Source: a virus
Taxonomy: Duplodnaviria > Caudoviricetes
Reading direction: 5' to 3' (one strand)
IMG/VR virus record: IMGVR_UViG_3300020325_000037
Location: 1-35,639 of that record
Length of the DNA stretch: 35,639 nt
A program made the translations under genes and the position numbers. Positions 2,195 through 33,294 of this stretch are shown here, in pieces. A model generated the notes under the pieces. The model was not told the DNA's origin. It saw only the letters and a list, made by a program, of their open reading frames with translations, and did no database searches. Within the stretch, counting starts at the first letter, position 1; each line of letters opens with the position of its first letter.

Positions 2195-2219
2195 AAAAAA
2201 AGAGGGGTCGAAACCCCTC
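2195..2219 (-). terminator. Rho-independent terminator
   Basis: GAGGGGT-TTCG-ACCCCTC followed by T7 on the minus strand. Confidence 0.9.
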
Positions 2220-2237
2220 CCATCTTACTAATTTTTC

Positions 2238-2333
2238 TCACTTCTTATGTAAAAGTGTGAGTTCCCCATAAAGTAAACCAAGAAATGCAATGCTAAAAAT
2301 AGAACCTACTGATGCTACTTGTAATGCTTGCAT
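2238..2333 (-). CDS. 31-aa single-TM peptide
   Basis: Not in the ORF track. MQALQVASVGSIFSIAFLGLLYGELTLLHKK, with GAGG SD 5 nt before ATG. Confidence 0.6.
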   Translation of the reverse strand: MQALQVASVGSIFSIAFLGLLYGELTLLHKK

Positions 2334-2340
2334 AGTTGCC

Positions 2341-2508
2341 TCACTTGTTATAAGTGTGACCACGATAGCAGAAAGTGCCGTGTGACTCTTTGCTTTCTAC
2401 ACAACGAGTATCATACTCAACACCACGATATGATGTGTGAGTGATCTGAGCGTCATGCAGTGCTGCTGCTTTCTCGATTTGCTTCTTGATGATAGTAAGG
2501 GTGTTCAT
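2341..2508 (-). CDS. DUF4278-family (YRG-motif) peptide, 55 aa
   Basis: Not in the ORF track. MNTLTIIKKQIEKAAALHDAQITHTSYRGVEYDTRCVESKESHGTFCYRGHTYNK has two YRG..Y motifs; AGGAG SD at 2517-2521. Confidence 0.85.
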   Translation of the reverse strand: MNTLTIIKKQIEKAAALHDAQITHTSYRGVEYDTRCVESKESHGTFCYRGHTYNK

Positions 2509-2551
2509 AGTAGTTGCTCCTGAAATACTAGGGATTTTTAGCCCCGTTCCT

Positions 2552-2722
2552 TCAGTCGTTTGCGTCCCAGTAATGACTACACTCAGGTACAGATTCCTTT
2601 ACGGTCTCTACTAACTCTATAACCACCTTTGGTGATAGTTCTGCTCTGTTTGCTTGGATCCTGAACACTAGTGCATCAGCATCGGCGCATAACATACCAG
2701 AGTATAAAAGTAGTTCTATCAT
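2552..2722 (-). CDS. 56-aa two-cysteine protein inside the riboswitch inner P2 loop
   Basis: Not in the ORF track. MIELLLYSGMLCADADALVFRIQANRAELSPKVVIELVETVKESVPECSHYWDAND, with GGAG 10 nt upstream. Confidence 0.65.
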   Translation of the reverse strand: MIELLLYSGMLCADADALVFRIQANRAELSPKVVIELVETVKESVPECSHYWDAND

Positions 2723-2757
2723 GGGATGAACGCTCCGTTCCGCGACTTACTTGCGTC

Positions 2758-2958
2758 CTATGTATACGCTCCGTTACATTCACCTGGTACTTTTGATTTA
2801 AGGTAAGCGATTAGACTCAACTTCGACCGAAGGTCAAGGTTTGGATCTAATCGGATTTCCGTAGATCTTTGTAACCACCTTTCACAAGACATATGCCAAT
2901 CGTAAGGATTGGCATCATTATGATGGGCAAGGGTGAATGCCAGCAGAAGTGCTAACAT
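2758..2958 (-). CDS. 66-aa two-cysteine protein with hydrophobic N-terminus inside the riboswitch outer P2 loop
   Basis: In the ORF track. The MxC...VPGEC pattern resembles 2552..2722. Confidence 0.65.
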   Translation of the reverse strand: MLALLLAFTLAHHNDANPYDWHMSCERWLQRSTEIRLDPNLDLRSKLSLIAYLKSKVPGECNGAYT

Positions 2959-2977
2959 TGGATGAACGTACTAGAGT

Positions 2978-3006
2978 ATTATAACTCCTATGCACTATGT
3001 AGTCAA
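2978..3006 (-). promoter_or_regulatory. Sigma70-type promoter TTGACT-N17-TATAAT
   Basis: -35 at 3001-3006, -10 at 2978-2983, 17-nt spacer; the predicted TSS falls just before the riboswitch P1. Confidence 0.85.
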
Positions 3007-3013
3007 GTAGTTG

Positions 3014-3029
3014 TGTAACTTATGATACA
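3014..3029. promoter_or_regulatory. NtcA-type binding site TGTA-N8-TACA
   Basis: TGTAACTTATGATACA matches the extended consensus and lies just upstream of the -35 box. Confidence 0.7.
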
Positions 3030-3089
3030 ATTTTAAAAAACTTTAAGAAGTGAAATTTTTGCCGGGATTTTTTCCCCCGATCTGGGAAA

Positions 3090-3359
3090 TCACTTCTTCT
3101 TTTTGGTTTTGGGTCCTTCGTAACCATACAACTTAGGATTGATTCTACCCTCAGTTTGTTTCATAGTCACGAAACCTTTCTTATACTTGTCGTAGTAGTG
3201 ATCAAAGATTTCAGATTGCTTTGCTGCCGCAGCAATATCATATGAACTAGCAGCACCACCTTCAACTTTATATTCAATCAAGAATGAATTGTTAGGCAGT
3301 TCACGATCATCTGCTCTTTCTGGATCGCAGTTTTCAAATAAAATTTTCATAAGATTCAT
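3090..3359 (-). CDS. Hypothetical protein
   Basis: 89-aa ORF whose start overlaps the upstream stop; basic C-terminal tail. Confidence 0.7.
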   Translation of the reverse strand: MNLMKILFENCDPERADDRELPNNSFLIEYKVEGGAASSYDIAAAAKQSEIFDHYYDKYKKGFVTMKQTEGRINPKLYGYEGPKTKKKK

Positions 3360-4635: not shown

Positions 4636-5421
4636 TTATATTGAGTCGGGATATCTTACAACAACTCTTCCGTCATTACCAGGGCGTCCATTATCGAATG
4701 GTGTTTGACAACAAGCACCACCAGTACCACCATCACCATAATTATCACCACTTCCGGGTACAATATAAGGATAGTACCAAAGACTAGAAGGTTGAGGTGG
4801 ATTGTTTTGCATACCATTAGGACCGCCAGGTCTTCCAGAACCCGCACCGCCAGCACCAGAGAAAACAGAAGATCCGTTAGCCCAGCCACTAACAGAACCA
4901 GATGGTCCGCCAGGACCAATATATGCTGGAGGACCTGAACCATAATTTCCTCCTCCAGATTCCAAATTTCCAGGGGATGATGGGTTTCCAACAAAGGATG
5001 AATCTTTACCTCTCATCTCTGGTCCAGGTTGTCCAGGAAATGAATTGGGTCTAAATCCACCAGCACCTACTGTAACAGCATAATCTCCAGGTAAGATACT
5101 ATCACCCAAATTATGAACTCTGGTGCCGCCTCCGCCGCCGCCACCACCAGATGGGTTTCCACCTCCAGGTTGTCCGTAGTTTCCAGCTGCTCCAGAAGCT
5201 TGAACAAGTACCTCTATGTTACTACCAGTTCCCTGTGTAACTTGGAAAGTTGAGGAACCTACCTCAAATACATGATAGTAATAACCACCTGTTGGTCCAC
5301 TTTTAGATCCACCATTTGCTAAAAAAGGAAGATTGGCTGGATCAACTCCACCTCTACCAACGCCACCACCTAATCCTGCTAATGCCTTGAGTGGTGCTTC
5401 TTTTTTATTCCATCCAAACAT
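4636..5421 (-). CDS. Glycine-rich adhesin-like protein 1 (261 aa)
   Basis: YYYHVF / IEVLVQASG / VTVGAGG / GRVVVRY scaffold with polyglycine runs; KKEAPL N-terminus. Confidence 0.75.
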   Translation of the reverse strand: MFGWNKKEAPLKALAGLGGGVGRGGVDPANLPFLANGGSKSGPTGGYYYHVFEVGSSTFQVTQGTGSNIEVLVQASGAAGNYGQPGGGNPSGGGGGGGGTRVHNLGDSILPGDYAVTVGAGGFRPNSFPGQPGPEMRGKDSSFVGNPSSPGNLESGGGNYGSGPPAYIGPGGPSGSVSGWANGSSVFSGAGGAGSGRPGGPNGMQNNPPQPSSLWYYPYIVPGSGDNYGDGGTGGACCQTPFDNGRPGNDGRVVVRYPDSI

Positions 5422-5436
5422 TATACTTATCTCCTA

Positions 5437-6414
5437 TCAAGCGTGGTTAGTCAAAGATGCAAAGACTTGAAAATTATTATTGTACTTATAAATGGTAAAA
5501 GTATAAACATCATATCCAGAAGTTCCTGCTGCAGATGGGGCAGAACCACCAGCCCAGAAAATATTACTTCCTGGCGTTAAAGTAGTACCATCAATTTTAA
5601 ATGCCGTCATATAATTACTTGAATTATTTACAGCAGTCGTCATCATATATGAAAGTGATGTCTCTGGACCTATCATACTACTAAGAGTATAAGTTTCATC
5701 TCCTCTCAAATTAATTGTAAATGGTCCAGCAGCATTAGTATGATTAAGGTATACGTTACCACTCTGCAAAAGGTTAATAGTTTTATCGCCAGTCAATCCT
5801 GTTGAATCATGGATGCATTTTTCACTCAATGAGGTTAGAAATTCAACTTGTCTATTATCACCATGAATTCTTATATGTGTACCTCCTGCAACACCAAGAG
5901 TTAAATCACCACTTCCAAATCCAATTAAAGCAGTAGTTCCTCCAGAAGCAGTTACACGTCCAACAGTATTACCATCACTACGAAAATCAATTACTCCTCC
6001 AGTAGTACCATTAATATCTAAAGATCCATATGCTGCTGAGTAAACGTGTGGAGTTGTGGTCCCAATACCAATCCTAGTACCAGAAGTAATCTGCCCATCA
6101 ACTGCTAAACTATCAACCGATGTAACAGCAGTATCGATAGTTGTTGTGGTTCCGTTTACGTTCAGATTACCAGATATCGTTGTGTCGCCAGTAATAGTAG
6201 CACCAGAAGTAGTTGCCTGAACTCTAGTAGCACTATTAGAATCGACAAGAGAAGATGAATCAGCACTGATTCCAGAGAGTTGAGAACCATCTCCACTAAA
6301 AGATGTTGCTGTTACAACACCTGTAACACTAAATCCAGAAGCAACTCCATTTGGGAGATGAGGTCCGCCACTTCCTGCTCTATTAACAAGTTTATCAGCT
6401 CTAATTCTGGACAT
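5437..6414 (-). CDS. Tail-fibre carrier protein (325 aa)
   Basis: MSRIRADKLVN start, TATSFSGDGS, GNLxVNGTTTTID shaft, and C-terminal WxGGSAP..YDVYTFTI domain. Confidence 0.75.
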   Translation of the reverse strand: MSRIRADKLVNRAGSGGPHLPNGVASGFSVTGVVTATSFSGDGSQLSGISADSSSLVDSNSATRVQATTSGATITGDTTISGNLNVNGTTTTIDTAVTSVDSLAVDGQITSGTRIGIGTTTPHVYSAAYGSLDINGTTGGVIDFRSDGNTVGRVTASGGTTALIGFGSGDLTLGVAGGTHIRIHGDNRQVEFLTSLSEKCIHDSTGLTGDKTINLLQSGNVYLNHTNAAGPFTINLRGDETYTLSSMIGPETSLSYMMTTAVNNSSNYMTAFKIDGTTLTPGSNIFWAGGSAPSAAGTSGYDVYTFTIYKYNNNFQVFASLTNHA

Positions 6415-6445
6415 TTTATAGTATCTTTTTAGTTATTTATTACGA

Positions 6446-7444
6446 TCAACTCCACCACATGATTACTGCACCAGGTCCACCGTAGAAACCACTACCAGAG
6501 CCAGAACCGCCACCACCAGATCCAAAAAATCCTGCAGCAGTATTACTAGGACTAGTAGTAGATCTTCCCTGTTTTCCATCAAACGCACTTTGACTGCTTG
6601 CATCCCCAAAGAACGGTAAATTTGAAACTAAAGAATACTGAAAGGTGTCACTAGGAACTGCATGTACTCCTCTAAGACTATCATAAAGATTGGAATCTGA
6701 AAAATTAACATTACTATTTCCTGGACCTCCGCCTGGACCTCCACCATCTCCGCCTGCGCCGGCACCACACCATGGCATTCTTGACTCTCCTCCAGAGAAA
6801 CCAGATCCACCGCCTCCACCTGTTGCTCCAGGATATCCATGGTTATTATCACGACCTTCACCACCAGTCATAGTATAAGCGTATTGAATTATAGGATTAT
6901 TAGTGTCAGCATAACCAGAACCACCAGGTGAAGGTCCTCCGTCAGGTCTACTATTTCCTCGATTACCCCTCAATAGTTGTGATCCATTTATTTCAATATA
7001 ACTAGGGTCTGAATTTGGACTCGAATGAGTATGACCACCTCTACCAGCACTCATATTAATAGTAGTTCCATGAGCAGGTCTAAGATCTATTTTTGCAAAT
7101 GCATATCCTCCTCCACCACCACCATCTCCAGCTCCAGCTCCATTACCACCACCGCCACCACCAATACAAACACAATAAGCCCAATCTATTGCACTAGGTA
7201 CTGAAAATGTTTCAGTATCCCCTGAAAAATATCCAGGTGTTGAGTTTGATCTAGAAGCACCACCTCCACTATAATTTCTTATATCACTACCAACTAGTGC
7301 AATACCTTTTCTATTATTCCAAACCCATAATTTATTACTAGTACCAGCACTAAAACTATGATTACTTGATCCCGCTAAAAATCCTGGAGAATTTTCTAAT
7401 GGGTCAATAAGAGCACCCAGTCCAACAAGTATTTGTTGCATCAT
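6446..7444 (-). CDS. Glycine-rich adhesin-like protein 2 (332 aa)
   Basis: TFSVP..VCIGGGGGG..GGPGAVIMWW scaffold; MMQQIL N-terminus. Confidence 0.75.
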   Translation of the reverse strand: MMQQILVGLGALIDPLENSPGFLAGSSNHSFSAGTSNKLWVWNNRKGIALVGSDIRNYSGGGASRSNSTPGYFSGDTETFSVPSAIDWAYCVCIGGGGGGNGAGAGDGGGGGGYAFAKIDLRPAHGTTINMSAGRGGHTHSSPNSDPSYIEINGSQLLRGNRGNSRPDGGPSPGGSGYADTNNPIIQYAYTMTGGEGRDNNHGYPGATGGGGGSGFSGGESRMPWCGAGAGGDGGGPGGGPGNSNVNFSDSNLYDSLRGVHAVPSDTFQYSLVSNLPFFGDASSQSAFDGKQGRSTTSPSNTAAGFFGSGGGGSGSGSGFYGGPGAVIMWWS

Positions 7445-20405: not shown

Positions 20406-21260
20406 TCAAGCAAAATTATTAACGTTAGCAAATATCTGATATCCACCAGATGTTTTGATAATAGTATATGTGTAAATATCATTTCCACTAGCACCTCCTT
20501 CTGTTGGTGCAGAACCACCCAACCACTTCTCTGTTACAGCAGCACCATCAATCGTCAACTGCGCCGAATAACCCGCTGCAGCTGCTGTAGTAATCAATGT
20601 AATAGTAACTGACTCTCCCTCAGCCAATACATTGTTCAGTGTTTTTGAGGCGCTATATCTGATGTTTGGTGTGGATGTGGTAGTTTCTGTTGAAGAGAAA
20701 TAATAAACAGATCCATTCTCAAGGTTGATATTATTATTATCACTCAGTTTACCAGAGATAATATTAACACCCTCTTTCATCAAACCACTCAAGTGAGCAC
20801 CACTAGTGCTCTTGAATAATCCACCAGAAAGTTCCCAATACTTAAAGTGTGTGCCGTCAGACCAATTAAAAGTTTTATCTCCGTCTGTACCAGCAAATAA
20901 AGTTAATCCACCACCGTTAGCAGTAACATTAGTAGGACTTGTTACAGAACCAATTCCAATGTTTTTATCCTGAACACTGAGCGTTTGTGTTTCAAGAATA
21001 GTTTGTACACCGTTGACCGTTAAATCTCCGGTGATTGTTAGTGCTCCACCAACTCTAACATCATGAGCATCAACATAATTTACATTGATATTTGGAGTTC
21101 CAGTAAGACCCTCAGCATTAGTTGCTAAAGTAACAGTTCCATTCAAATTACCATCAAAAGTGGTAGCAGTTAGAACTCCACTAACAACTGCACCATTAGG
21201 AAATGTGGGAGCACCGCCACCTTGTCTATTACTAATATTATCGGCTCTAAGCGTAGACAT
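20406..21260 (-). CDS. Tail-fibre carrier protein (284 aa)
   Basis: MSTLRADNI start, DKNIGIG..ANGGGLTL, C-terminal WLGGSAP..DIYTYTIIK. Confidence 0.75.
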   Translation of the reverse strand: MSTLRADNISNRQGGGAPTFPNGAVVSGVLTATTFDGNLNGTVTLATNAEGLTGTPNINVNYVDAHDVRVGGALTITGDLTVNGVQTILETQTLSVQDKNIGIGSVTSPTNVTANGGGLTLFAGTDGDKTFNWSDGTHFKYWELSGGLFKSTSGAHLSGLMKEGVNIISGKLSDNNNINLENGSVYYFSSTETTTSTPNIRYSASKTLNNVLAEGESVTITLITTAAAAGYSAQLTIDGAAVTEKWLGGSAPTEGGASGNDIYTYTIIKTSGGYQIFANVNNFA

Positions 21261-21290
21261 TAAATTATCCTGGTACCAATTTAATTATAT

Positions 21291-22817
21291 TTATAACCCA
21301 CGAATCATAAAGTCATTATTGTCGATAATCAAATCATGGTTATCAATTCGCACCTCTTCATACTTAACATATGCAATTTGATCTCCTAACTTAGGTGCAA
21401 CTGTTTCGTTTGATGCAGTAGCAACAGTAATAGTTACAGGAGCACTTATAACTTCTGCAAGAAATCCCGTAGTACCAACAGTTTCTTCGCCACCACCAAG
21501 TTGACCTGTAAGAGATTGATTGATATGTAAATTATCAACTGTTGAATTCAGGATAGTATTCTGAACAACAGAACCATGAATCAGAACGTCAACAACATCC
21601 CCAGATATAGCAGGTTCAGTAAGTGTAATTCTAGTAGAGCTAGTCTCAGTGAAATCAGTAGATGATAAGCGAACGCCGTTGATGAATACATCTACGTATC
21701 CAGTATTGTAAGTGTTTGCTAAATCGAAGATTGTCTGATTGGTAGTGACGTTGAATGTTTCCTTATGGATAACACCCGATCCACCACCGCCACTACCACC
21801 AGCAATACTAATTTCAACAGTATCTCCAACCTGTCTAATGCTATTACCAGCACCAACAAAGTTCAGAGTCCTAACAGTACCAATACCAATACCACCAGAA
21901 TGAATGGCAACAACTGGGTCACTATCAATGATGTTAACATTACCAACTCTCCCGTGGAAAGAAGTTACATCACTAACCGCAGGAGATGCATATGAAAGAT
22001 GTCTTACAGATATATCTGCACCATTAGAAGGAGAACCACTGAAGGCAAGAATAGTATCATAAACAGAATATGCACCAGCAAAATCGGTCTCTGTTGGGTG
22101 CTGAACAACACCATCAATCGAAACTACTACAGAAGAATTATTTGGAACTGATCTTGAAAGAACGAAGTCAGTCGTAGTTCCATCGCCAGTAAAATTATCA
22201 ACCTCATAGTCAGTAACATCAAATGATGCAAGACTTTCTACAATAACTTGTCCCCAGAATGCACGCTCATTCTCTGTGGGAGCAGTTGCAAATGCAATAT
22301 TTCCGCCATTCTCAATCGTATATCCTTGAGTTAGAGTTTGTGTATTCTTATTTGGTTTCTGAATAACACCATTGATGGAAATTTGTAACTGTGCCGCATC
22401 AGAAACACTACAAAGTTTTCCATTATCTCTTGTAGGACGAAACTTTGTATTAACACCATCAAATGCAACATTCAATGTATGAGCAAATCCAGCACCAGTT
22501 GACGACAACGATATTGGTATACTGGAAATTGCATCCGATGCTGATGCTGCTAATAAGATATGATCACTATCATGCTTTATAATAAAGTAAACACCATCAT
22601 TAGATAAACCACCAATATCAGTCCCGCCACCATTTCCATAAGTTGTCCTCTGACCTGTTAAGAACCTATGCCCTACCAGTTTAATCCTATTAGTCGTAGT
22701 GTCAACAACACCAGAACTAGAAGGATTAAAAGTCTGTGTAAATGATGATATATCATCAAGTACTCTAAAATTACTACTAGATTCTAGAGTTGGGTTTAGA
22801 TTGCCGATATATGGCAT
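21291..22817 (-). CDS. Tail-fibre / baseplate-associated scaffold protein (508 aa)
   Basis: MPYIG start, LDDIS, ISINGVIQKP, FTGDGTTTDF and VDVFINGVRL repeats. Confidence 0.7.
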   Translation of the reverse strand: MPYIGNLNPTLESSSNFRVLDDISSFTQTFNPSSSGVVDTTTNRIKLVGHRFLTGQRTTYGNGGGTDIGGLSNDGVYFIIKHDSDHILLAASASDAISSIPISLSSTGAGFAHTLNVAFDGVNTKFRPTRDNGKLCSVSDAAQLQISINGVIQKPNKNTQTLTQGYTIENGGNIAFATAPTENERAFWGQVIVESLASFDVTDYEVDNFTGDGTTTDFVLSRSVPNNSSVVVSIDGVVQHPTETDFAGAYSVYDTILAFSGSPSNGADISVRHLSYASPAVSDVTSFHGRVGNVNIIDSDPVVAIHSGGIGIGTVRTLNFVGAGNSIRQVGDTVEISIAGGSGGGGSGVIHKETFNVTTNQTIFDLANTYNTGYVDVFINGVRLSSTDFTETSSTRITLTEPAISGDVVDVLIHGSVVQNTILNSTVDNLHINQSLTGQLGGGEETVGTTGFLAEVISAPVTITVATASNETVAPKLGDQIAYVKYEEVRIDNHDLIIDNNDFMIRGL

Positions 22818-22925
22818 TGACTTCTATTATATTCTGTTTTATTATTTATCCTAAGTATTCCACAACAACATTATATACACTCAATAATTATAGCACATCA
22901 TGCAACAGCATAGTAGATATGGTTC

Positions 22926-23087
22926 TTACCATTTATTAACTGGACAATGAAACTCACGAACTTTACACTTAACTTTTAAGAAGCATCCACAAACATCACA
23001 CCTATGAAAACTTTGTGGAAGATAATGTTCACATTGCTTACACACATCAAATCTTTTTTGTGCATCTTTTTGCTCAAGAAATATCAT
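22926..23087 (-). CDS. Small Cys-rich, putative metal-binding protein (53 aa, start revised)
   Basis: CKQC..CDVCGC..CPVNKW. Confidence 0.7.
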   Translation of the reverse strand: MIFLEQKDAQKRFDVCKQCEHYLPQSFHRCDVCGCFLKVKCKVREFHCPVNKW

Positions 23088-23598
23088 AATCTGGGTGATT
23101 TTCCTCAATATAAGGACTATTTTGTGGTCGAATCCATGATTGTGTGGATTCATCCCATGCATATGGGATATCAGTATCAATAGGCATATCTACTGGTGCA
23201 TTCCACTGCTTAGTTGAATCGTCCCATGTCCAGGAAGCATATGGTGATGATGGTTTACTACTATTGAAAGTAAAAGAATCTCTATAATCAGTACCACGAT
23301 ACAAACACCACATGGATATTGTGTATTCTGTAGTTGGAATTAAAAAAATGCCCGCACTACATAACGGACAAATACCATCCGATGAAATATATCTTTGCTG
23401 ATCTTTAGGATAATTTTGTGCCGAAATAATTTCAGAATTTTTTGTTAATTCATATCCAAATCTAACATCTGTAATATCTACAGGATATGAATCACCAACA
23501 AACTTTATATTTAATTCACTATAACCATGTGCATTGGAAGAATCCTCCAAAATAAATTGACGTGTTTCAATATCAAACTTGATATCTATACTATTCAT
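23074..23598 (-). CDS. Hypothetical protein with Trp-rich C-terminus (possible fibre assembly factor)
   Basis: PSSPYASWTWDD..WNAPVDMP..YAWDE..W; AGGAG SD. Confidence 0.6.
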   Translation of the reverse strand: MNSIDIKFDIETRQFILEDSSNAHGYSELNIKFVGDSYPVDITDVRFGYELTKNSEIISAQNYPKDQQRYISSDGICPLCSAGIFLIPTTEYTISMWCLYRGTDYRDSFTFNSSKPSSPYASWTWDDSTKQWNAPVDMPIDTDIPYAWDESTQSWIRPQNSPYIEENHPDYDIS

Positions 23599-23610
23599 AA
23601 TAATCTCCTA

Positions 23611-24789
23611 TTAGACTTTATATCTTATCATAACAATTCCAGGTCCACCATTACCACCAGTGTAAGTTGGACTACCACTACCATTACTTCCAGCACCACC
23701 ACCACCTCCACTATGAGCACCACCAGGTGCGCCAGGTGAATCACCGGGTGAGGTTGGTCCATTACCACCAGGATTTATTGAAGAACCACCACCTAGTGCA
23801 TATCCTGGTGCACCAATTCCACCAGAACCACCACCTCCACCAAGTCCACCATCACCATGATAGTTTGCATCAAATGGTGTTGAACCAGGTGGTGTCTGGC
23901 AGTATCCATCAGCAGCACCGCCGCCCCCCCAATAATAATTATTTCCATCAAAATTATGTTGATAACCATTACCACCATTAGCACCACCGGATTGATCCGC
24001 CGGGGTTTGGCGAGCATTTATTCCACCCGACCCTGCACCTGCACCACCTCCACCTCTGCATGGACAACAGTATCCGGATCCTTGACCACCAGCATTATTA
24101 TATGCATTAACTATTCTATCAAATTGACCCTTTGGTGTTGATATTGTGTTTGTTGCAGATCTGTAAGACCAATGCGAATCTCTTGGATTAGCCGGGTAAT
24201 TTTCACCACCAGTGTTAGCAACATTAACGTTCAAAGTCGTATTATCAGGATGACTAAATGAATATGATTGTCCAGCTCCACCACCTGCAACTTCTATCTT
24301 ATCATTTGCACCATTATATTGAAAATATGATGGCGATCCATTACTGGACGAGTGCGACCAACCTTGATCACCGGTACCACCTTGTCCAACACCAATAGTA
24401 TAAGTTCCAGGAGCAATACCAGTAGGCATTCTATATACTGCAACACCACCACCGCCGCCGCCACCGCCGAGGACAGCACCTCCACCTCCACCACCAACTA
24501 AGAAAATTTCAATTCGACCATCAGTACCACCAGCACCACCATTTGGACTATTATCACCAGATGCTGTAAATGTAGCAGTATGTGGGGCACCACCAACATT
24601 TGGACTAGCAAGAAAGGTGTGTAAGTTATAATCTTGCCCATTGATATTAATCTGAGTTACTGTACCTCCAGTAAAAGTTCCAGCTTCACTAGCACCAGAA
24701 CCACCTGCCAGAAAACCAAGACCTCCACCAGAACCTTCCAGTCCCAGAAGAGGTGCTTCCTTTTTAAAGAAGTTACTGAATATACTCAT
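23611..24789 (-). CDS. Glycine-rich adhesin-like protein 5 (392 aa)
   Basis: YNLHTF, IEIFLVGGGGGG, IGVGQGG, GGPGIVMIRY; KKEAPL N-terminus. Confidence 0.75.
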   Translation of the reverse strand: MSIFSNFFKKEAPLLGLEGSGGGLGFLAGGSGASEAGTFTGGTVTQININGQDYNLHTFLASPNVGGAPHTATFTASGDNSPNGGAGGTDGRIEIFLVGGGGGGAVLGGGGGGGGVAVYRMPTGIAPGTYTIGVGQGGTGDQGWSHSSSNGSPSYFQYNGANDKIEVAGGGAGQSYSFSHPDNTTLNVNVANTGGENYPANPRDSHWSYRSATNTISTPKGQFDRIVNAYNNAGGQGSGYCCPCRGGGGAGAGSGGINARQTPADQSGGANGGNGYQHNFDGNNYYWGGGGAADGYCQTPPGSTPFDANYHGDGGLGGGGGSGGIGAPGYALGGGSSINPGGNGPTSPGDSPGAPGGAHSGGGGGAGSNGSGSPTYTGGNGGPGIVMIRYKV

Positions 24790-24802
24790 TGTCTACCTCC
24801 TA

Positions 24803-25792
24803 TCAAGCGTAATTGGTCATAGCACCAAATATTTCATATGAATTTGTTGCTGATCCATCTTTAAAGATTGTAAATGTATAAACATCTCTACCAGATGAAC
24901 CAGCACTAGGCGCTGAACCACCAGACCATTTTAATCCAGCAAAAGGCGCTACTCCATCAACTGTAGCAGCATTGATATAACCAGAATTATTTGGTGTGAG
25001 AATGACTGTGAAAGAAACTGATTCTCCATTAGCAAGTGTAGAGTGTACTCCAGTAAAGTTTACTGTTTGAGCACCAGACTCATTGGTTGTAAATCTATGA
25101 ACGTTACCAGAACTAAGAGCAACATCATTACTTGCTGCTGCTAATGTAGTTCCTTGTTTATACTTTTCAACAAGTCCACCCTTGAAGACTCCTACTCCAT
25201 CTACTTCACATTCTCCAACAACTCTTACACCAGCACTAGTAGTGAGGAATTTACCACTATTACCAAAGCTTAATACTACATCACCACCAGTGCCAAAGTG
25301 AACACACCTATAGTCATTTATACCAAGTTCAAACCACGACTGCGTTAGGTTATTACGTAAATACGCAGACCCAACTCCAGCCTGACCAACGGTGGTATCT
25401 TTTAAGAATATCGTGGGTGAAAGACCAAAAATGGATAGATTTGAAGTTGGGTTTGTGGTTCCGATACCAACATCACCATCAACTGCTAAACTATCAACCG
25501 ATGTAACAGCAGTATCGATAGTTGTTGTGGTTCCGTTTACAGTCAGGTTACCAGTAACTGTTGCATCACCACTTACACCAAGATTACCAGTAACGTCAGC
25601 ACCAGTAGATGTTGCTTGTACCTTTACACTGCCGCCAGCACTTAACGAAGATCCACCAATACCGGAAAGTCCAGAACCATCTCCACTAAAAGATGTTGCT
25701 GTTACAACACCTGTAACAACAACGCCATTGGGTAAAGACGGTGCTGAACCAGCAACGCGACCAGTTATTGAGTCAACACTTAATTGCGACAT
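24803..25792 (-). CDS. Tail-fibre carrier protein (329 aa)
   Basis: MSQLSVDSI start, VGIGTTNP, C-terminal WSGGSAP..DVYTFTIFK. Confidence 0.75.
   Translation of the reverse strand: MSQLSVDSITGRVAGSAPSLPNGVVVTGVVTATSFSGDGSGLSGIGGSSLSAGGSVKVQATSTGADVTGNLGVSGDATVTGNLTVNGTTTTIDTAVTSVDSLAVDGDVGIGTTNPTSNLSIFGLSPTIFLKDTTVGQAGVGSAYLRNNLTQSWFELGINDYRCVHFGTGGDVVLSFGNSGKFLTTSAGVRVVGECEVDGVGVFKGGLVEKYKQGTTLAAASNDVALSSGNVHRFTTNESGAQTVNFTGVHSTLANGESVSFTVILTPNNSGYINAATVDGVAPFAGLKWSGGSAPSAGSSGRDVYTFTIFKDGSATNSYEIFGAMTNYA
25476..25718. repeat. Three exact blocks shared with other carrier genes
   Basis: 25476-25540 = 6095-6159 (65 nt); 25568-25608 = 11039-11079 (41 nt); 25673-25718 = 6283-6328 (46 nt). Confidence 0.9.
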
Positions 25793-25817
25793 CTGATTAT
25801 ACTACCTTTTTACTTAT

Positions 25818-25991
25818 TTATTCAGTTACGACTGCGCCACCAAAAGAATAAATCTCACTAGCAGCAGTTGTTTTATTAGTATATCTCTTTCTATCCGCAT
25901 ACTCAGTAGTCCAAGCGGTACCACCAGTATAATAGACAGTACGCTCGGTACCAAGAATGTTTTGCTGTTTAGCAACGTGATAGTTTGCCAT
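25818..25991 (-). CDS. 57-aa late protein, probably structural
   Basis: Not in the ORF track. MANYHVAKQQNILGTERTVYYTGGTAWTTEYADRKRYTNKTTAASEIYSFGGAVVTE; late promoter at 26014-26020. Confidence 0.7.
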   Translation of the reverse strand: MANYHVAKQQNILGTERTVYYTGGTAWTTEYADRKRYTNKTTAASEIYSFGGAVVTE

Positions 25992-26019
25992 CTTTACTAT
26001 AACTGTTTTCAGTTATTTA

Positions 26020-26751
26020 TTACCTTGCCATATCAAATGCACAATGTGCTCTCTGACCATCTTGAAGAACGTAATGAAAAAAGATTTGATGGTAATAATA
26101 TTCTTTTGCTTTTCTCCTAAGAATAATGTCCCTCTTCCTACGTCTTGGTGTAGGCATAGGATCACGCCAGTGAGGTCTTTCACATCCTTTATATACCATA
26201 CCATCACCAGGTCCAAGAATTACTGAGCGATTTTCACCTGGAGTTTTTATTATATTCTTATACTTATCTGTATATGTGTCTGGAGTTTTAATCCAAAGTG
26301 GCCAATCTTTATCCTCACCTTCTAGGTTGGTGCTGATATGAATGGAGACAGAGATTTCACAAGCGTCACGATCAGCATGAAGAGTCAGTGCTTGTCCAGG
26401 ATAGTAAAATCTATCATAATAATAGGTATTATAAAGTTTGCGTCCAAGTGCTTTTTCCAATTTCATACGAACACCAGAGTGAATTTGACGATATTGAGGA
26501 TGCCAGTAACGTGCTGTAGAACCTTCCACCTGACCTTCAACAGGAACATGACTATAATGTTCAGGATTTTTGTCCCAATAGTTGTACTGACCCCTTTCAA
26601 GAGGAACTGGATGATACAGTTCTTCTGGATCCCAGAGATCTTTGATTACAAGATATCCATTTTTATCAAAACTTTCATTACGAGTCCATGTAGTACCCGA
26701 ATTCATTCTTTCTTGGAACTGAAGTTGTTCCATAGTCATTTCTTCCGCCAT
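26020..26751 (-). CDS. 2OG-Fe(II) oxygenase-like protein
   Basis: LHADRDACEISVS (HxD), GDGMVYKG..PHWR, QIFFHYV. Confidence 0.75.
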   Translation of the reverse strand: MAEEMTMEQLQFQERMNSGTTWTRNESFDKNGYLVIKDLWDPEELYHPVPLERGQYNYWDKNPEHYSHVPVEGQVEGSTARYWHPQYRQIHSGVRMKLEKALGRKLYNTYYYDRFYYPGQALTLHADRDACEISVSIHISTNLEGEDKDWPLWIKTPDTYTDKYKNIIKTPGENRSVILGPGDGMVYKGCERPHWRDPMPTPRRRKRDIILRRKAKEYYYHQIFFHYVLQDGQRAHCAFDMAR

Positions 26752-26759
26752 AATTTACC

Positions 26760-27350
26760 TCAAATTTTTTTCCAATGATTGCGAACTTTTGGATGTATAT
26801 CGAGTATACTAAAACTGTCTCTAATATCAAAGGCAATAGATACCCTACAATCATTTCCAATGTATCTATCAGTCGAATGCTTTAAACAACTCGAAAAGAG
26901 TACCATATTACCAATTATATTGGGAACCTTTTTTTCACCATAATATGTAGAAGTACTAGTATCACTGTAAATAAAAAGATTTCCAGAAACTAGATTAAAG
27001 TATCGGGTACTTTCTTCATCAGAATGGAGATGGGGATTAACCATTTCGCCATTTCTCAATACATTTGCCCAACACTGGACATATATACTGGTCTCCCGAC
27101 TATTAGTAAGTCTTTTATAATTTTGCTTGATAGTTTTCTTTAACTTTTTTGTTCCCCACCATTCTAAAACATTAAAATGACAGGCTCTTGAAGTTAAACT
27201 TTCGTATCCAAGACCTGTTTCTCCATCAAAATCATACTTCAAATCCCAAGTTTTTGCTGGGTATTTTTGTATGATTGATTTTTCATTCTTTAGAATTTTT
27301 TTCTTTAGATAAAGAGTATCAATATCTGTGGAAAATTCTTCAAAAAACAT
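26760..27350 (-). CDS. 2OG-Fe(II) oxygenase-like protein (start revised)
   Basis: WANVLR..PHLH, SGNLFI, LFSSCLKH, RVSIAFD; TAATG coupling with the upstream gene. Confidence 0.75.
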   Translation of the reverse strand: MFFEEFSTDIDTLYLKKKILKNEKSIIQKYPAKTWDLKYDFDGETGLGYESLTSRACHFNVLEWWGTKKLKKTIKQNYKRLTNSRETSIYVQCWANVLRNGEMVNPHLHSDEESTRYFNLVSGNLFIYSDTSTSTYYGEKKVPNIIGNMVLFSSCLKHSTDRYIGNDCRVSIAFDIRDSFSILDIHPKVRNHWKKI

Positions 27351-27970
27351 TACTTCCAACGAGGACCAACAGTCCAACCAACAATAGATTTTCGTAGACC
27401 ACTCTTAACTTTTGTGACTCGGTGCATTGTTCGAGAATCAAACAAAATAACTGTGCCGCGCTTCCTTGGTGCAAAATATGATTTACCTGCTTCATCAAGG
27501 AGTTGAAGGTTTCCACCTTCATAGGCATCTGGATCGGAAAGTTGAAGAACAAAGGATAGTTTACGAACCATCTCAACATTTTCATTGAGGTAATCTTGTG
27601 CAATACCTTCTGAACGATTACCAAAACTTACTGGTTTGTATTGACCAGCTAGTCCAGCATCATTATGCCAACCATAAAATTGTCCCTCACCATATCGAGT
27701 ATATTGCATTGACTCACCATCAATACAACGAAGGTTATAAAGGAAGTTCTCTCGATTAGCACGCTCAATATAATGCCACAAGAATCCACCAAGCCAATGT
27801 TGACTTGGAACCCATGCATTTTGAGAGTTACGCTTTTCTTTATTCAGAGAATCTCCCATAAGACGGGAATCTCCCATCTGATCATCAAACTTTTCCGTAA
27901 GATCTTTTTCAACAATCTCTACAACATCTTCAGGAAGATCGGTAAAATACCAAATAGACTGATACGCCAT
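27350..27970 (-). CDS. 2OG-Fe(II) oxygenase, PKHD/prolyl-hydroxylase-like
   Basis: WHND (HxD), RKLS, YEGGNL, HRVTKVKSGLRKSIVGW. Confidence 0.88.
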   Translation of the reverse strand: MAYQSIWYFTDLPEDVVEIVEKDLTEKFDDQMGDSRLMGDSLNKEKRNSQNAWVPSQHWLGGFLWHYIERANRENFLYNLRCIDGESMQYTRYGEGQFYGWHNDAGLAGQYKPVSFGNRSEGIAQDYLNENVEMVRKLSFVLQLSDPDAYEGGNLQLLDEAGKSYFAPRKRGTVILFDSRTMHRVTKVKSGLRKSIVGWTVGPRWK

Positions 27971-27993
27971 ATACCAATAATATGTTCAAGTTT

Positions 27994-28022
27994 ATTATAT
28001 ATGATTATTAAATGAAAGTCAA
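27994..28022 (-). promoter_or_regulatory. Sigma70-type promoter TTGACT-N17-TATAAT for the oxygenase cassette
   Basis: -35 at 28017-28022, -10 at 27994-27999. Confidence 0.8.
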
Positions 28023-29426
28023 TTACGAAATTCTTTGAATTGTTACCTCACCTGACTGATACCCAGGATATACTCCAGTATTTTGACGCGACCAATCAGT
28101 AAATCCTTCAGCAGAATCTCTACCATAGATACCACCCGCTCCAGAAGTTGCATAACATCCAGAATTCATACCACCACTAAATCCACCTCCAGCACCACTT
28201 CCACCACATCCTCTAGATCCTCCTCCTCCACCACCAAATCCACCATCATTTTGATTTACTGGTGAATTGGAATGTCCTATCGGAGAGGATCCAGCGCCGC
28301 CATGAAATGCTCTATGATAATCAGAAGGAACAGAAGATACCCCTCGATTTTGGCGTGATGGACCATCAGCCCACTGACTAGTAGGACCACCACTATTTCC
28401 AGGATAACCACCTCCAGAACTGTTTAATGGTTGGTTTCCAGCCATTGTAAAGACAGCATTCTGTGAATGATTAAATGCACCGAAATTAGGATTAGGTCCA
28501 GGAAAAGCATATGATTCTGGAATCGCCATCCAAGATACTGGATTATTCTGATTTGCATCATCTGGTGATGCAGTTCTCGACATAAATCCAGCACCACCGC
28601 CACCTTCAAAGTTTCTAGCACCCGGACCACCCCAGTCTATTTGACCAGCATAACCAGCAGCTTGTCTTCTAAAACTATTATAGTCATAAGACGGTGGACT
28701 TATTCCAGGTCCAGGAGTACTTACACTACTTCTAGTTCCAAATATATTAGTAGATCCATTTATACCCCTACCATCCGTCGCGTTAAATGGACTACCATGG
28801 GCTCCAGAACCACCTCCACCAGCACAAATAATTGATTCTAAAGTTCTAGAATTATAAGAATAATTCATACCACTTCCACCATTATCCCAATAATTACCAA
28901 CATACCATACAAATGATCCTCCACCTCCACCACCACAATAGGATTGTTCGATTCCTTTCTTACCAACAACAATTAAAATAATATCTCCACCTAAAAGTGG
29001 ACCTCTAGTTGTACAATAAGATCCCCTTCCTCCGTATGCCGTCCCGCCAGATGATGAATTTGGGCAATCACCACCAGCAGCTCCACGAGCTGAAAGTTCA
29101 TATACACCATCTTCTGGAATAACAAGTTTTATAACTCCCCTCCAATTGACAGTATGATCATGTTCTACGGTACTAAAAAGATGCCTACCCCCATTACGAA
29201 ATCCTGATCCTGAATAGTTAGGATTACCATATATTGTAGAGTCAGGACTTCCTAATGCGCCGGTGTCAATATTATCGGCGTTGAAAGTATAAGTAGTTCC
29301 AGCAGTCCAATTATACAGGGGAGGGTTTGGTCCGCCGCCGCCACCAGTAAGATATCCAGTGGTACCACCACCCATACCCATCATACCTTGAATGGGTCTT
29401 TCTTTCCTAAACCAGTTGTTAAACAT
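28023..29426 (-). CDS. Glycine-rich adhesin-like protein 6, ALK/LTK-GRD-like (467 aa)
   Basis: GVYELSARGAAGG, GGGGGGSFV, GGFGGGGGG, GAGGGFSGG. Confidence 0.75.
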   Translation of the reverse strand: MFNNWFRKERPIQGMMGMGGGTTGYLTGGGGGPNPPLYNWTAGTTYTFNADNIDTGALGSPDSTIYGNPNYSGSGFRNGGRHLFSTVEHDHTVNWRGVIKLVIPEDGVYELSARGAAGGDCPNSSSGGTAYGGRGSYCTTRGPLLGGDIILIVVGKKGIEQSYCGGGGGGSFVWYVGNYWDNGGSGMNYSYNSRTLESIICAGGGGSGAHGSPFNATDGRGINGSTNIFGTRSSVSTPGPGISPPSYDYNSFRRQAAGYAGQIDWGGPGARNFEGGGGAGFMSRTASPDDANQNNPVSWMAIPESYAFPGPNPNFGAFNHSQNAVFTMAGNQPLNSSGGGYPGNSGGPTSQWADGPSRQNRGVSSVPSDYHRAFHGGAGSSPIGHSNSPVNQNDGGFGGGGGGSRGCGGSGAGGGFSGGMNSGCYATSGAGGIYGRDSAEGFTDWSRQNTGVYPGYQSGEVTIQRIS

Positions 29427-29441
29427 ATTCTTTACCCCCTA

Positions 29442-30437
29442 TCAAGAAGTCTTGGTTTGATTACCGATAACAGTATAAGTGTTTGCAGCAGTTTTGATAA
29501 TATTAAAGGTGTAAATATCAACACCCGATGATCCACCATCTGATGGTGCAGAACCACCAATCCAATTTATGTTAGTTTGATTAGTACCATCAATCTCAAG
29601 TCCGGTTACATTATATGCAGAGTTGTTTACAGAGTGAATAATGGTGACAGTGATTGCTTCACCAACATTCATAGTGTTATCCAGTGATCTAGTAGAACTA
29701 TATCTAACATTAGGTCTAGCAGAAGAACCCAAGTTAGCAGTCCTAAAATGAACCATACCATCTGAAATATTAATTGATGTTGCAGAACCGAGGTCATTAG
29801 AAAGAATTTTAACTTGCTCAGAAAGCATCTTACGGGTATTTAAACCCTCTGAGGTAAATAACTGACCTCCATCAACCTGCCAGTAATTTTGAACACCAGA
29901 CTGGTTCCAAGTGAATGACTTATCACCATCGGCACCACCGAAGAGTGTGAGTCCACCACCATTAGCAGTGGTGTTTGTTGGTGTAGTTACAGAACCGATA
30001 CCAATATTAGCATCTTCTACACTGAGATTTGCTGTATCAATTGTTGTAGTCGTACCATTGACGGTAAGGTCACCAGTAATCGTAGCATTATTACTTACAG
30101 TTAAATCTGCAATAGTTCCTGTAATATCAGCAAATGATGTAGAACCAGAAACATTCAGAGTACTACAAGTAATAATACCAGTAGTATTAAGATTTGCTCC
30201 ACCAGTAAGATTAAGTCCACCACTAGCAGTAATATCACCAGTGATGTTAGCACCACTACCAAATTCTGCTGGACCAGTAAATATGGAACTTCCGCTGTTG
30301 GTAAAGGTACCACCGTTTGTTATATTACCAGCACTAGTAACGGAAACAATACCCGTCACAGCAAGTGTGTTTGCTTCAGGAACAGTAACTACCGTACCCG
30401 TTCTCGATTTAATATTATCGACTCTTAATGTAGACAT
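29442..30437 (-). CDS. Tail-fibre carrier protein (331 aa)
   Basis: MSTLRVDNI start; C-terminal WIGGSAP..DIYTFNIIK. Confidence 0.75.
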   Translation of the reverse strand: MSTLRVDNIKSRTGTVVTVPEANTLAVTGIVSVTSAGNITNGGTFTNSGSSIFTGPAEFGSGANITGDITASGGLNLTGGANLNTTGIITCSTLNVSGSTSFADITGTIADLTVSNNATITGDLTVNGTTTTIDTANLSVEDANIGIGSVTTPTNTTANGGGLTLFGGADGDKSFTWNQSGVQNYWQVDGGQLFTSEGLNTRKMLSEQVKILSNDLGSATSINISDGMVHFRTANLGSSARPNVRYSSTRSLDNTMNVGEAITVTIIHSVNNSAYNVTGLEIDGTNQTNINWIGGSAPSDGGSSGVDIYTFNIIKTAANTYTVIGNQTKTS

Positions 30438-30472
30438 TCGTTTTCGTCGTGACGGTTTTTGCTAGAAATTAT

Positions 30473-31138
30473 TTATAATATCATTAGAGCGCCATCATCA
30501 ATATCAACAGTTACATTAGGTTCAACATCATAAGTTAACTCATCCTGTAACTCTACGGGCATTTTACCATACCCAACAAAAGCACTCTCTAAACTCATAG
30601 GAAGATTGAAACTTGTGCGAATATTATCATCAAAGTCAGTCTTCCTGTATATATTTGTCTGTTGTGCAGGATTTCCAAAAAAGTCAATATCAAATTCATC
30701 CTTATCTTTGATGAGTAGTAAGCACTCATCATCAATACTAACAGTTACTCCAGGTTCAATATCAACAGTAACATCCTGATGTGTAAATACTTCTCCAAAC
30801 TTTTGAGGTGCTGATATAGTAGCATCAGTAGTAAATCTTGCACTGTGCAAGAATAAAATTTTATTGAGAGTATCTACATCATAATCAATACCACCACTTC
30901 CACTACCACCGCCACCAGCGATAGAAATATCAACTCTACTACCATCAACTAAAAATGTATTTCCAGCACCAACAAAATTAATGGTTTCAATTATACCATC
31001 ATGTACTGTTTGACCGGCAGAGTGAATACCAATACCCTTAATACCAGAACTAGCAACAATAGTATTTGCTTGGATATCTCCAAATCCAAGATCTAAATCA
31101 CTCTGTATAACACCTTGTCCAACTTTAGTTAATCCCAT
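30473..31138 (-). CDS. Fibre linker protein (221 aa)
   Basis: GIGIHS..TINFVGAGN motif and two VDIEPGVTVSIDD-type modules. Confidence 0.65.
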   Translation of the reverse strand: MGLTKVGQGVIQSDLDLGFGDIQANTIVASSGIKGIGIHSAGQTVHDGIIETINFVGAGNTFLVDGSRVDISIAGGGGSGSGGIDYDVDTLNKILFLHSARFTTDATISAPQKFGEVFTHQDVTVDIEPGVTVSIDDECLLLIKDKDEFDIDFFGNPAQQTNIYRKTDFDDNIRTSFNLPMSLESAFVGYGKMPVELQDELTYDVEPNVTVDIDDGALMIL

Positions 31139-31545
31139 CAGAATAATCCTAATGCATTAGTACGGATAGTTGTTCCAGAACAAATAGTAACTGTAGAACC
31201 TGTAGAGATTGTTATATTCTTTTCTTTAGCAATTACCATATTTCCTTCAGAAGCACTTGCACATATATTCAAAACATCACAACCACTACCACCTAAGGTA
31301 AGAGTCATGTTGTTTACGTAAAGACTCTCCAACCCACAGTCACTTCCTATAGCAGATCCGATACCAGTAGCACTACTACCACCACCGCCAGCACCAGAAC
31401 CAGAAATACTTACATCAACTTGATCATTATGTACGGCAAAAGTGTTTCCAGCACCAATGAAATTAATAGTTTTGATTAATCCACTGTGAACATTAGATCC
31501 ACCAGAGTGAATACCAATACTTCCAGTAAGTCCTTCTAGCGCCAT
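31138..31545 (-). CDS. Fibre linker protein (135 aa)
   Basis: GIHSGG..TINFIGAGN motif and ITISTGSTVTI module. Confidence 0.65.
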   Translation of the reverse strand: MALEGLTGSIGIHSGGSNVHSGLIKTINFIGAGNTFAVHNDQVDVSISGSGAGGGGSSATGIGSAIGSDCGLESLYVNNMTLTLGGSGCDVLNICASASEGNMVIAKEKNITISTGSTVTICSGTTIRTNALGLF

Positions 31546-31573
31546 TATGTTCAGGAAGTCTTTTTACTATTTA

Positions 31574-31747
31574 TCAAGCAGGTGTTGTTCCCAAATTACC
31601 AGAATTATCTACAGTTAAACGATATCGTGTCCCATTTGGAGACGTTAAGATAAGACCACCATTACCAAGTTCAAGTCTATCACCAACTTGAAGTTCTTGG
31701 AATTGCTTAGCAGTTGAATTATATGTTAATGGATACTTATCAGCCAT
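31574..31747 (-). CDS. 57-aa late protein
   Basis: Not in the ORF track. MADKYPLTYNSTAKQFQELQVGDRLELGNGGLILTSPNGTRYRLTVDNSGNLGTTPA; N-terminus paralogous to 34379..34720; late promoter at 31768. Confidence 0.75.
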   Translation of the reverse strand: MADKYPLTYNSTAKQFQELQVGDRLELGNGGLILTSPNGTRYRLTVDNSGNLGTTPA

Positions 31748-31770
31748 TCTATCAAACTGTTTTTAGATAT

Positions 31771-32172
31771 TTATGCCTTATTAAAAGATATGAAACCTTT
31801 TGTTCCATCTCTCAAAAGAATACCAAGGTTCTCACCATTCAAAGGAAGTAAAGCATGAGTAGTTCTAGTTGCTATAGTCAAACTAGTTAATGCTGCAGTA
31901 TTCATTGTCGTACCTAAAACAATACAATAGAATTTAGATCCTGCACTAGGAGCAGAAGCAAAGGTCAACAAATTTTCTTCAACAATAAAAGACCTAACTG
32001 GTTCCTGAATAATACCATTCAATGATACAAGTAAAGTGTATGCATTTGAAGAAAAGAATGGTTCATTAGAAACCGAAAGATTAAAAGATACCCTATTACC
32101 ATCAAACTGGTCTGAAATATCATCCAGTTTGATATAGGGTCCTGTTGTTTGGGGTCTTCCTATGTATGGCAC
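31771..32172 (-). CDS. Short scaffold protein (133 aa), paralog of the 508-aa protein
   Basis: GTG start, PYIG, KLDDIS, VSLNGIIQEP, LTFASAP. Confidence 0.7.
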   Translation of the reverse strand: MPYIGRPQTTGPYIKLDDISDQFDGNRVSFNLSVSNEPFFSSNAYTLLVSLNGIIQEPVRSFIVEENLLTFASAPSAGSKFYCIVLGTTMNTAALTSLTIATRTTHALLPLNGENLGILLRDGTKGFISFNKA

Positions 32173-32210
32173 TGACTTATATTATATTCTATTTTATTAT
32201 TTATCCTATA

Positions 32211-33281: not shown

Positions 33282-33294
33282 AATTTACCTCCTA

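Follow-up and report, generated by a model that had tools for sequence, protein, structure and literature searches.

Glutamine riboswitches of cyanobacterial hosts function as ON switches for genes encoding DUF4278 proteins, typified by the glutamine-I leader of gifB/IF17 in Synechocystis, and the short IF17-like proteins are described as lacking the C-terminal part needed for glutamine synthetase (GS) binding in that organism (Klahn 2018, PMC6212724). RNAs termed 'tandem glnA' have also been reported (PMC2864571), with 157 such doublets counted more recently (PMC9481103), and a 99-nt glnA match is on record for cyanophage S-CREM1 (PMC9964418). Glutamine riboswitches of cyanophages and 'tandem' forms are thus familiar from the literature, most of it openly accessible, in which neither a nested permuted core nor open reading frames (ORFs) within the loops were found.

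The element considered here lies on the minus strand of a 35,639-nt stretch of DNA (the whole of which is called the window) that looks like a fragment of the genome of a T4-like marine cyanophage and encodes PhoH, ThyX, 2OG-Fe(II) oxygenases, ferrochelatase, and tail and virion proteins. Like the gifB/IF17 leader of Synechocystis (PMC6212724), it displays a P1-P2-P3 three-way junction, an E-loop and the pocket bases, and precedes a DUF4278-like gene for which a translational ON switch is predicted. Unlike that leader, its P2 houses a 66-codon gene, the loop of its P3 houses a permuted core together with a 56-codon gene, its outer P1 spans 424 nt and its 23-60 pair is C-G. The blocking strand is different too, being the P3/E-loop strand in the phage as opposed to C68 and the following bases proposed by Klahn et al. 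(PMC6212724). With glutamine-II RNAs (RF01704; PMC6698751) the element has in common the pocket chemistry, the C19-G41 polarity of the long-range pair, a DUF4278-like target and, at its inner junction, the lack of an E-loop, but it has no pseudoknot strand after the core, and its inner junction adjoins a helix that also belongs to the outer core. The 'tandem glnA' RNAs (PMC2864571) resemble it in bearing two cores per leader, and half-units of the phage element stand as separate rows of their alignment; an ORF-free allele is probably among these published RNAs, although their descriptions, as far as accessible, tell of tandems and mention no nested permuted core and no loop ORFs. The element is apparently a widespread, undescribed variant of the glutamine-I riboswitch. 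The reading favored here, with a probability of roughly 0.65, is a two-site glutamine riboswitch with a microprotein gene in each P2, predicted to turn the downstream gene ON and the enclosed genes down (Table 1).

Genes housed in the loops of a structured RNA are represented by group I introns, which bear endonuclease genes in peripheral loops, and in leader-peptide attenuators the position of a ribosome decides the fold of the RNA. Unlike these introns, the putative host RNA of the phage genes is a metabolite sensor, with nothing indicating splicing, and unlike the short sensor peptide of an attenuator, its cargo is a selected family of proteins of 50-70 aa.

Table 1. Features of the element and its predicted transcription unit (positions in the window)
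Feature	Positions	Strand	Details
Sigma-70-type promoter	2978..3006	-	-35 at 3006-3001, 17 nt spacer, -10 at 2983-2978; 11/12 consensus match
Short inverted repeat around -10 box	2974..2987	-	Covarying across relatives
Outer core 5' strand	2963..2968	-	C1, G2 of outer pocket; outer P1 pairing with 2549-2545
P2a	2756..2962	-	Arms 2962-2960 and 2758-2756 around 207-nt insert
ORF66	2758..2958	-	phrog_6471, Syn9 gp196-like; two-cysteine helical-hairpin microprotein (predicted), hydrophobic N-terminus
Junction 1	2742..2755	-	G22 2754, C23 2753 (outer pocket); E-loop strand 2751-2748; P3 5' strand 2747-2743
Inner P1 hairpin	2728..2740	-	3-nt loop; C58' 2737, G59' 2736, G60' 2735, C1' 2732
P2b	2565..2726	-	Arms 2726-2722 and 2569-2565 around 162-nt insert
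ORF56	2552..2722	-	phrog_504, Syn9 gp197-like; two-cysteine helical-hairpin microprotein (predicted)
Junction 2	2544..2564	-	G22' 2563, C23' 2562; P3 3' strand 2558-2554; E-loop 2553-2551
Junction 2, outer-core part	2549-2544	-	Outer P1 3' strand 2549-2545 (C58 2546, G59 2545), G60 2544
Switch (OFF) helix, predicted	2520..2555	-	2555-2550 with 2525-2520; overlaps first bases of downstream SD, excludes P3/E-loop
AGGAG ribosome site of downstream gene	2517..2521	-	AGGAG in 217/242 distinct spacers
DUF4278/IF17-like gene, predicted regulated gene	2341..2508	-	55 aa; phrog_545 E 7e-36, Syn9 gp198-like
Intrinsic terminator-like hairpin and T run	2200..2221	-	End of unit

Three minus-strand ORFs of 66, 56 and 55 codons lie between the promoter and the terminator, and the transcript is predicted to start near 2971, about 3 nt 5' of the aptamer. 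A sigma-70-type site recurs in 292 of 324 distinct upstream regions of relatives, with the end of the -10 box placed 7-9 nt before C1 in 283, and the inverted repeat bracketing this box forms at least four Watson-Crick pairs in 232 of 249 relatives (0.37 with the halves shuffled), reminiscent of the stem-loops of T4 promoters. In many relatives TAAATA-like words overlap the -35 spacer, and some bear TATAAATA in their place, hinting at early plus late transcription starts. The contigs of relatives from RNA libraries, whose depths are unsuited to ranking genes by expression, give a weak hint as to the extent of the unit: they are concentrated on about 2213-2953 in five of six libraries and become sparse near the terminator. 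Among the six, X8 covers the flanks too and X9 holds only two contigs, and in two unlabelled runs contigs fill all 30 bins, like DNA. A 31-aa hydrophobic ORF (2238-2333, minus strand) without a PHROG match overlaps the stop codon of the DUF4278-like gene and ends ahead of the terminator. Elsewhere in the window, the minus-strand regions 4636-7444 and 20409-34128 encode many Gly-rich or tail-fibre-like paralogues with phrog_5906 or phrog_36132 segments in common.

Related loci were collected by seven scans of viral contigs with the downstream protein, ORF66, four motif patterns and one free-standing homologue, the last of which came later and yielded loci outside the parsed set; the loci are samples of at least these numbers, and the frequencies of loop states vary with the query. 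From 522 loci and the element of the window, the parser recovered 490 central motifs, of which 459 were complete (31 incomplete ones were dropped) and 368 were distinct elements. Pairs 1 and 2 of P2, the pairing of inner P1 and an open frame in long loop-1 inserts were conditions set by the parser, so these features carry no evidential weight. The riboswitch region is matched by 435 phage records, with names of Synechococcus, Cyanophage, Prochlorococcus or Marine, and these matches, together with the 368 distinct complete elements parsed from 523 sequences, argue that the element is not a product of chance. Both loops are compact in 62 elements, loop 2 alone holds an ORF in 198, loop 1 alone in 22 and both in 83, with 3 elements of other kinds; among elements found solely through the downstream protein, 61 of 62 distinct ones have at least one loop ORF. 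A search of 185,579 bacterial genomes returned 8 matches, comprising 6 full elements on contigs that are phage-like by their neighboring ORFs and 2 chance hits. Cyanophage-like contigs with the full element were binned as bacterial or archaeal in six cases (L527, L528, L529, L531, L532 and L534, including a Nonlabens isolate assembly), likely through contamination.

The product of the downstream gene scores 24.4 bits against PF14105 of Pfam (E 3.8e-5), just below the cutoff of 25.3, and three phage relatives score 18.8-22.9 bits. Syn9 likewise has both loop ORFs (gp196-gp198, the last being the downstream product). The product of g198 has been detected in infected WH8102 and falls within the late group, with g196 and g197 absent from the list (PMC6708340 Table S3A; gene numbering matched via g193, g194 and g199); the accessible supplements of PMC11726456 gave no match to Syn9 gene names. 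The original prediction that the DUF4278-like gene is under the control of a switch is supported by a helix that covers its ribosome site and covaries. The variable pair of this helix is G:C in 110, A:U in 77, G:U in 59 and A:C in 0 of 246 cases (from 249 distinct combinations; Fisher p 1.5e-26), the helix having been first noticed and then tested on the same loci, and it is present in ORF-free alleles as well (A:U 27, G:C 26, G:U 9, A:C 0). On supported branches six contrasts are available, four of which go the same way, none the opposite way and two unchanged (p 0.125). The helix has a predicted probability of 0.91-1.0 in this element and above 0.5 in 68 of 70 relatives. Folded without ligand, outer P1 and P3 are near zero in all four loop states because the switch helix competes with them, and this mutual exclusion of switch helix and aptamer leads to the prediction of an ON switch. 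Relative to the ligand-free minimum, the nested fold of this element is less stable by 9.8 kcal/mol (25 C, with E-loop and ligand unscored). Folding without ligand predicts that inner P1 and P2b form and that the start of ORF56 is hidden as well (P about 0.9-1.0). P2a has a probability of at most 0.02 in this element and exceeds 0.5 in 14 of 22 two-ORF relatives. A helix led by G60 was rejected as the expression platform, its value of 0.45 being not clearly above chance (0.37 shuffled, maximum 0.46). About a quarter of the spacers between aptamer and SD in relatives (60 of 242, these spacers measuring 59-71 nt) bear an extra hairpin module (e.g., L523 and L459), and in L225 (407-596) a compact allele is preceded, at a distance of about 85 nt, by a manA RNA scoring 173 bits.

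Each P2 stem does hold an ORF in place of a short loop, as had been proposed, and the P2 pairs covary both in compact and in ORF-bearing alleles, the comparison that had been suggested as a check. The third pair of P2a is retained in all 103 distinct ORF-bearing inserts (CG 74, UA 28, UG 1; shuffled 0.80). On a tree of 101 inserts of the ORF66 family, its base changes coincide, since each base changes 9 times but the whole pair only 10; kinship inflates covariation counts, and just 3 independent contrasts are found on supported branches (p 0.25). The fourth pair of P2b is retained in 275 of 276 ORF-bearing inserts (CG 223, UA 40, UG 10, AU 2; shuffled 0.87), its variation within the main family being almost only C-G to U-G. 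The outer stem had been drawn longer, from 2962-2955 with 2763-2756 around one A.A mismatch. While its 5' arm does contain the ATG and the TAG (2760-2758) does supply G2758, covariation is confined to the 3 junction-proximal pairs, and the extension through the start codon was rejected as a selected stem: positions 5-7 are paired at 0.73, 0.57 and 0.61 in the 103 inserts versus 0.75, 0.59 and 0.64 when shuffled. The inner stem agreed base by base with the original prediction, its arms enclosing most of the 56-codon ORF, and so did the placement of GGAG (2736-2733) within the inner hairpin and the identity of the terminal W-D-A-N-D-stop with the aptamer junction. This tail is dictated by the RNA, as its W is replaced by K, Q, R, E, S or I in step with changes in P2b. 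A short permuted P2, formed by the 3' arm of P2a with the 5' arm of P2b, was rejected (P 0.00), P2a covarying within itself.

The loop ORFs are under purifying selection, with dN/dS of 0.21-0.23 in the ORF66 family and 0.36-0.47 in the ORF56 family, compared with 0.19-0.32 for the downstream gene (pooled Nei-Gojobori, unsaturated bins, pairs not independent). All 379 distinct loop ORFs, which fall into 12 BLAST clusters, encode exactly two cysteines and a hydrophobic N-terminus, the cysteines are spaced by 35-36 in 363, and structure models place a two-helix hairpin between them (pLDDT 83 and 79), suggesting disulfide-closed, exported or membrane-bound microproteins. The ORF56 and ORF66 families have the same Cys spacing and helix pattern, and a relationship between phrog_504 and phrog_6471 is suggested; hhalign gives a probability of 11% (E 0.003) for this pair and of 38% and 49% for the ORF66 family with other families, and nothing significant was returned by direct BLASTP of ORF56 against ORF66. 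No family was found for the loop ORFs in Pfam, no match to the ORF66 model in the PDB at E<=0.001, and only unnamed clusters for the microproteins in the Atlas; the top matches of the ORF56 model were only unnamed cyanophage proteins, none at E<=0.001. Extra RNA structure was rejected as a special trait of the loop ORFs, which do fold more stably than synonymous shuffles (mean z -3.1, -1.9 and -3.0; 25 each), as does the downstream gene (-2.2), against a reference of -0.65 for 20 other gene pieces and an unremarkable -0.6 for ORF56 of this element.

ORF56 continues across junction 2, so that its stop codon lies within the switch strand, and GGAG is its candidate SD. With the loci of one motif-pattern scan excluded, GGAG is found in the inner hairpin of 135 of 190 loci with a loop-2 ORF and of 8 of 82 without; for the common P1 type the former count is 108 of 109, and in the clade with a GCAACG P1, 54 of 81 loop-2 ORFs have no GGAG. 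ORF66 has a leader of about 13 nt without an SD, its ATG lying 10 nt from C1, and leaders of genes of this type measure 10-14 nt. Long loop-2 inserts are ATG-started open frames in 281 of 284 cases. Homologues of the ORF56 family, sampled from one protein, are also found free-standing in ordinary operons with their own SD, implying that the microprotein family was likely captured into the loops; these comprise gene 59 of phage Bellamy (L535:1501-1680) and genes on eight further contigs (L536-L543), with no riboswitch halves nearby.

As a two-site glutamine riboswitch, the leader would be built on the nested architecture of five helices supported by covariation. Without ligand, the strand 2555-2550, whose pairing covaries, would cover the ribosome site of the downstream gene; once the aptamer folds, this strand would be drawn into P3 and the E-loop, leaving the site free. 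Glutamine, to which the pocket bases and the host riboswitches point, would drive the aptamer fold, such that more IF17-like protein is made at high glutamine, and that glutamine turns the downstream gene ON is quite probable. On steric grounds, the bound fold would hold the 13-nt leader and the start of ORF66, whose initiation would fall, and it would lower initiation at ORF56, where the first two G of GGAG are the pocket bases G59' and G60'. That glutamine represses one or both of the loop ORFs is given a likelihood only a little above even. Conversely, ribosomes on either loop ORF would be expected to unfold the aptamer, and those stopping on ORF56 would occupy the blocking strand and would briefly free the downstream site. 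A reciprocal switch between loop ORFs and downstream gene had been suggested, of which control of the downstream gene is supported by the covarying helix; two results argue against clean reciprocity, the start of ORF56 being predicted to be hidden in the ligand-free state and its stop lying in the blocking strand. Reciprocity is likely leaky rather than strict because of the position of this stop codon. A broader and more tentative proposal, given somewhat less than an even chance, is a two-site, likely cooperative sensor whose P2 loops would be plug-in slots, conferring glutamine-OFF control on any gene of the disulfide-hairpin family and glutamine-ON control on the downstream gene.

Alternatively, the riboswitch may govern the downstream gene only, the P2 loops being tolerant landing sites from which microproteins are translated without glutamine control. 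This is unlikely, although a number of observations accommodate it: all four combinations of loaded and unloaded loops exist, loading switches frequently on the tree of the downstream gene (39 and 16 changes versus 67 and 45 shuffled), free-standing family members lie in ordinary operons, a homing endonuclease gene occupies the inner P1 loop of some phages, and the ORF56 start appears equally hidden without ligand. Mere landing sites are harder to reconcile with the fixed place of the start codons, which lie 4-6 nt from the core in the 5' arm of P2 in 98 of 98 loop-1 and 225 of 229 loop-2 ORFs, or with a loop-2 SD that is built from pocket bases and tracks the presence of the ORF. Moreover, the initiating ribosome and the bound aptamer would compete because both require the same bases.

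Returning to the two-site glutamine riboswitch, a scan of the whole window against Rfam gave no element match at the gathering score, and the glutamine-family models gave none over 2200-3100 at E<=10. Ten of 20 ORF-free alleles pass RF01739 (two of two at 46.4 and 45.0 bits versus a threshold of 35, then 8 of 18), a threshold reached by neither of the two-ORF phages Syn9 and S-TIM5, and even a model built from 57 compact alleles finds only fragments of this element (25.5 and 13.4 bits). As in RF01739, five P1 pairs join the first and last strands, P2 is a covarying stem of variable sequence, the E-loop strands AGUA and GAA are present (AAA replaces GAA in 121 of 368 elements), and C1, G2, G22, C58, G59 and the long-range 23-60 pair are in place. 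These observations uphold the original prediction of a glutamine-riboswitch-like RNA. Its likeness to both the glnA and the Downstream-peptide RNAs holds in part, the outer core being glnA-type: the pseudoknot of RF01704, between the linker strand and the strand directly after the core, is absent, the linker strands pairing as P3 on which both cores are nested. One of 18 compact alleles reaches the RF01704 threshold (34 versus 33), and the pocket bases of that family (C1, G2, G18, C19, C39, G40 and G41) are complete in both cores of 358 of 368 elements. The same count applies to the contact bases of Huang 2019 (PMC6698751), and the outer set is complete in 364, all partly fixed by the search patterns.

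It is improbable that the fold, though real, binds a ligand other than glutamine, or that only the outer core binds with the inner one serving a structural or kinetic role. Such a reading would account for the C-G at position 23/60 in place of the G-C of the solved glnA aptamer, for an inner core with a 3-nt linker and no adjacent E-loop, and for the loss of C23' from 6 of 368 inner cores. The bases of direct contact are unchanged in both cores, however, covariation is as good for inner P1 and P2b as for their outer counterparts, and the published glnA alignment, as far as accessible, contains ordinary rows in which C23 occurs with G60.

A glnA-type outer core with a circularly permuted second core inside its P3 loop is proposed with high confidence. 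The identity of the P1 strands in both halves means that sequence alone permits a sequential or a nested parse, and two self-contained glutamine riboswitches in a row, as 'tandem glnA' RNAs are usually drawn, would match the resemblance of the halves, the single half-units without P3 that form rows of the glnA alignment of Weinberg 2010, and the doublets counted by Sherlock 2022. This arrangement is very improbable. Among 41 complete loci with P1 variants, parsed without the P1 pairing rule, the nested arrangement fits 41 and the sequential one 0, although the variants may derive from only two or three events; the middle strands change together in 40, and the first and last in 4, three of which also have inner changes. 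Variants of the outer 5' strand covary with the final strand and not with the middle one, outer P1 being paired in 367 of 368 elements with a C-G to U-A change in 9. P3 covaries between the two halves, including a G-C to A-U change, and in the sequential parse the P1 of the second unit is predicted at P about 0 for each of the four loop states. RNAalifold recovered the nested fold unprompted from 57 ORF-free alleles, in an alignment with 99.9% of cells paired and both-sided changes in 8 of 23 pairs. Alignment of ORF-free alleles to RF01739 places an inner module of 39-41 nt in the P3 loop, identifying the outer core as glnA-type, and junction 1 of compact relatives fits the RF01739 consensus. 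The inner module is permuted in that its 3' strand comes first, followed by a loop of 3-5 nt and its 5' strand, with P3 common to the outer core and no E-loop beside its junction. Two of the five helices thus supported by covariation span 207 and 162 nt of coding sequence.

Variations on this architecture were also observed. L131 (compact, ORF, compact), L134, L146, L151 and L220 have three-unit or otherwise variant elements in which the first junction is longer, and P3 is altered on both strands simultaneously in L163, by matching insertions, and in L194, by a double substitution. In Sf-CH5 (L524:1104-1676), L360 and L379, a 190-aa homing endonuclease gene (phrog_314) interrupts the inner P1 hairpin within its 3-nt loop, and judging from these sequences this loop is a third gene-accepting loop in some phages.

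The notion that the half-motif repeats serve a gene-cassette system as anchors for DNA recombination, or that RNA splicing removes the ORFs, draws on the exchange of cargo among at least 12 sequence clusters and on RNA-library contigs that skip ORF56, but is scarcely credible, as G-U wobbles are tolerated throughout the stems and the skipping contigs, which also appear in runs covering the whole stretch like DNA, differ in the hairpin letters between the arms and are hence compact alleles of other phages, for which reason splicing or excision of the loop ORFs was rejected.

Riboswitch aptamers are regarded as compact, non-coding RNAs, and annotated genes are masked in searches for them, whereas the sensor proposed here is assembled over about 420 nt containing two selected genes. 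Given that close relatives mostly bear the gene-loaded form, counts of phage riboswitches are likely too low. The natural empty-loop alleles provide ready controls, and the two-ORF layout is shared with the model phage Syn9. If the broader proposal of plug-in slots is correct, a riboswitch invisible to covariance models would be present in most marine cyanomyoviruses, and a single RNA would divide the output of a phage operon between nitrogen-poor and nitrogen-rich conditions. The sensor would offer cyanophages a possible route to read the nitrogen status of the host, perhaps throttling the host glutamine synthetase late in infection.
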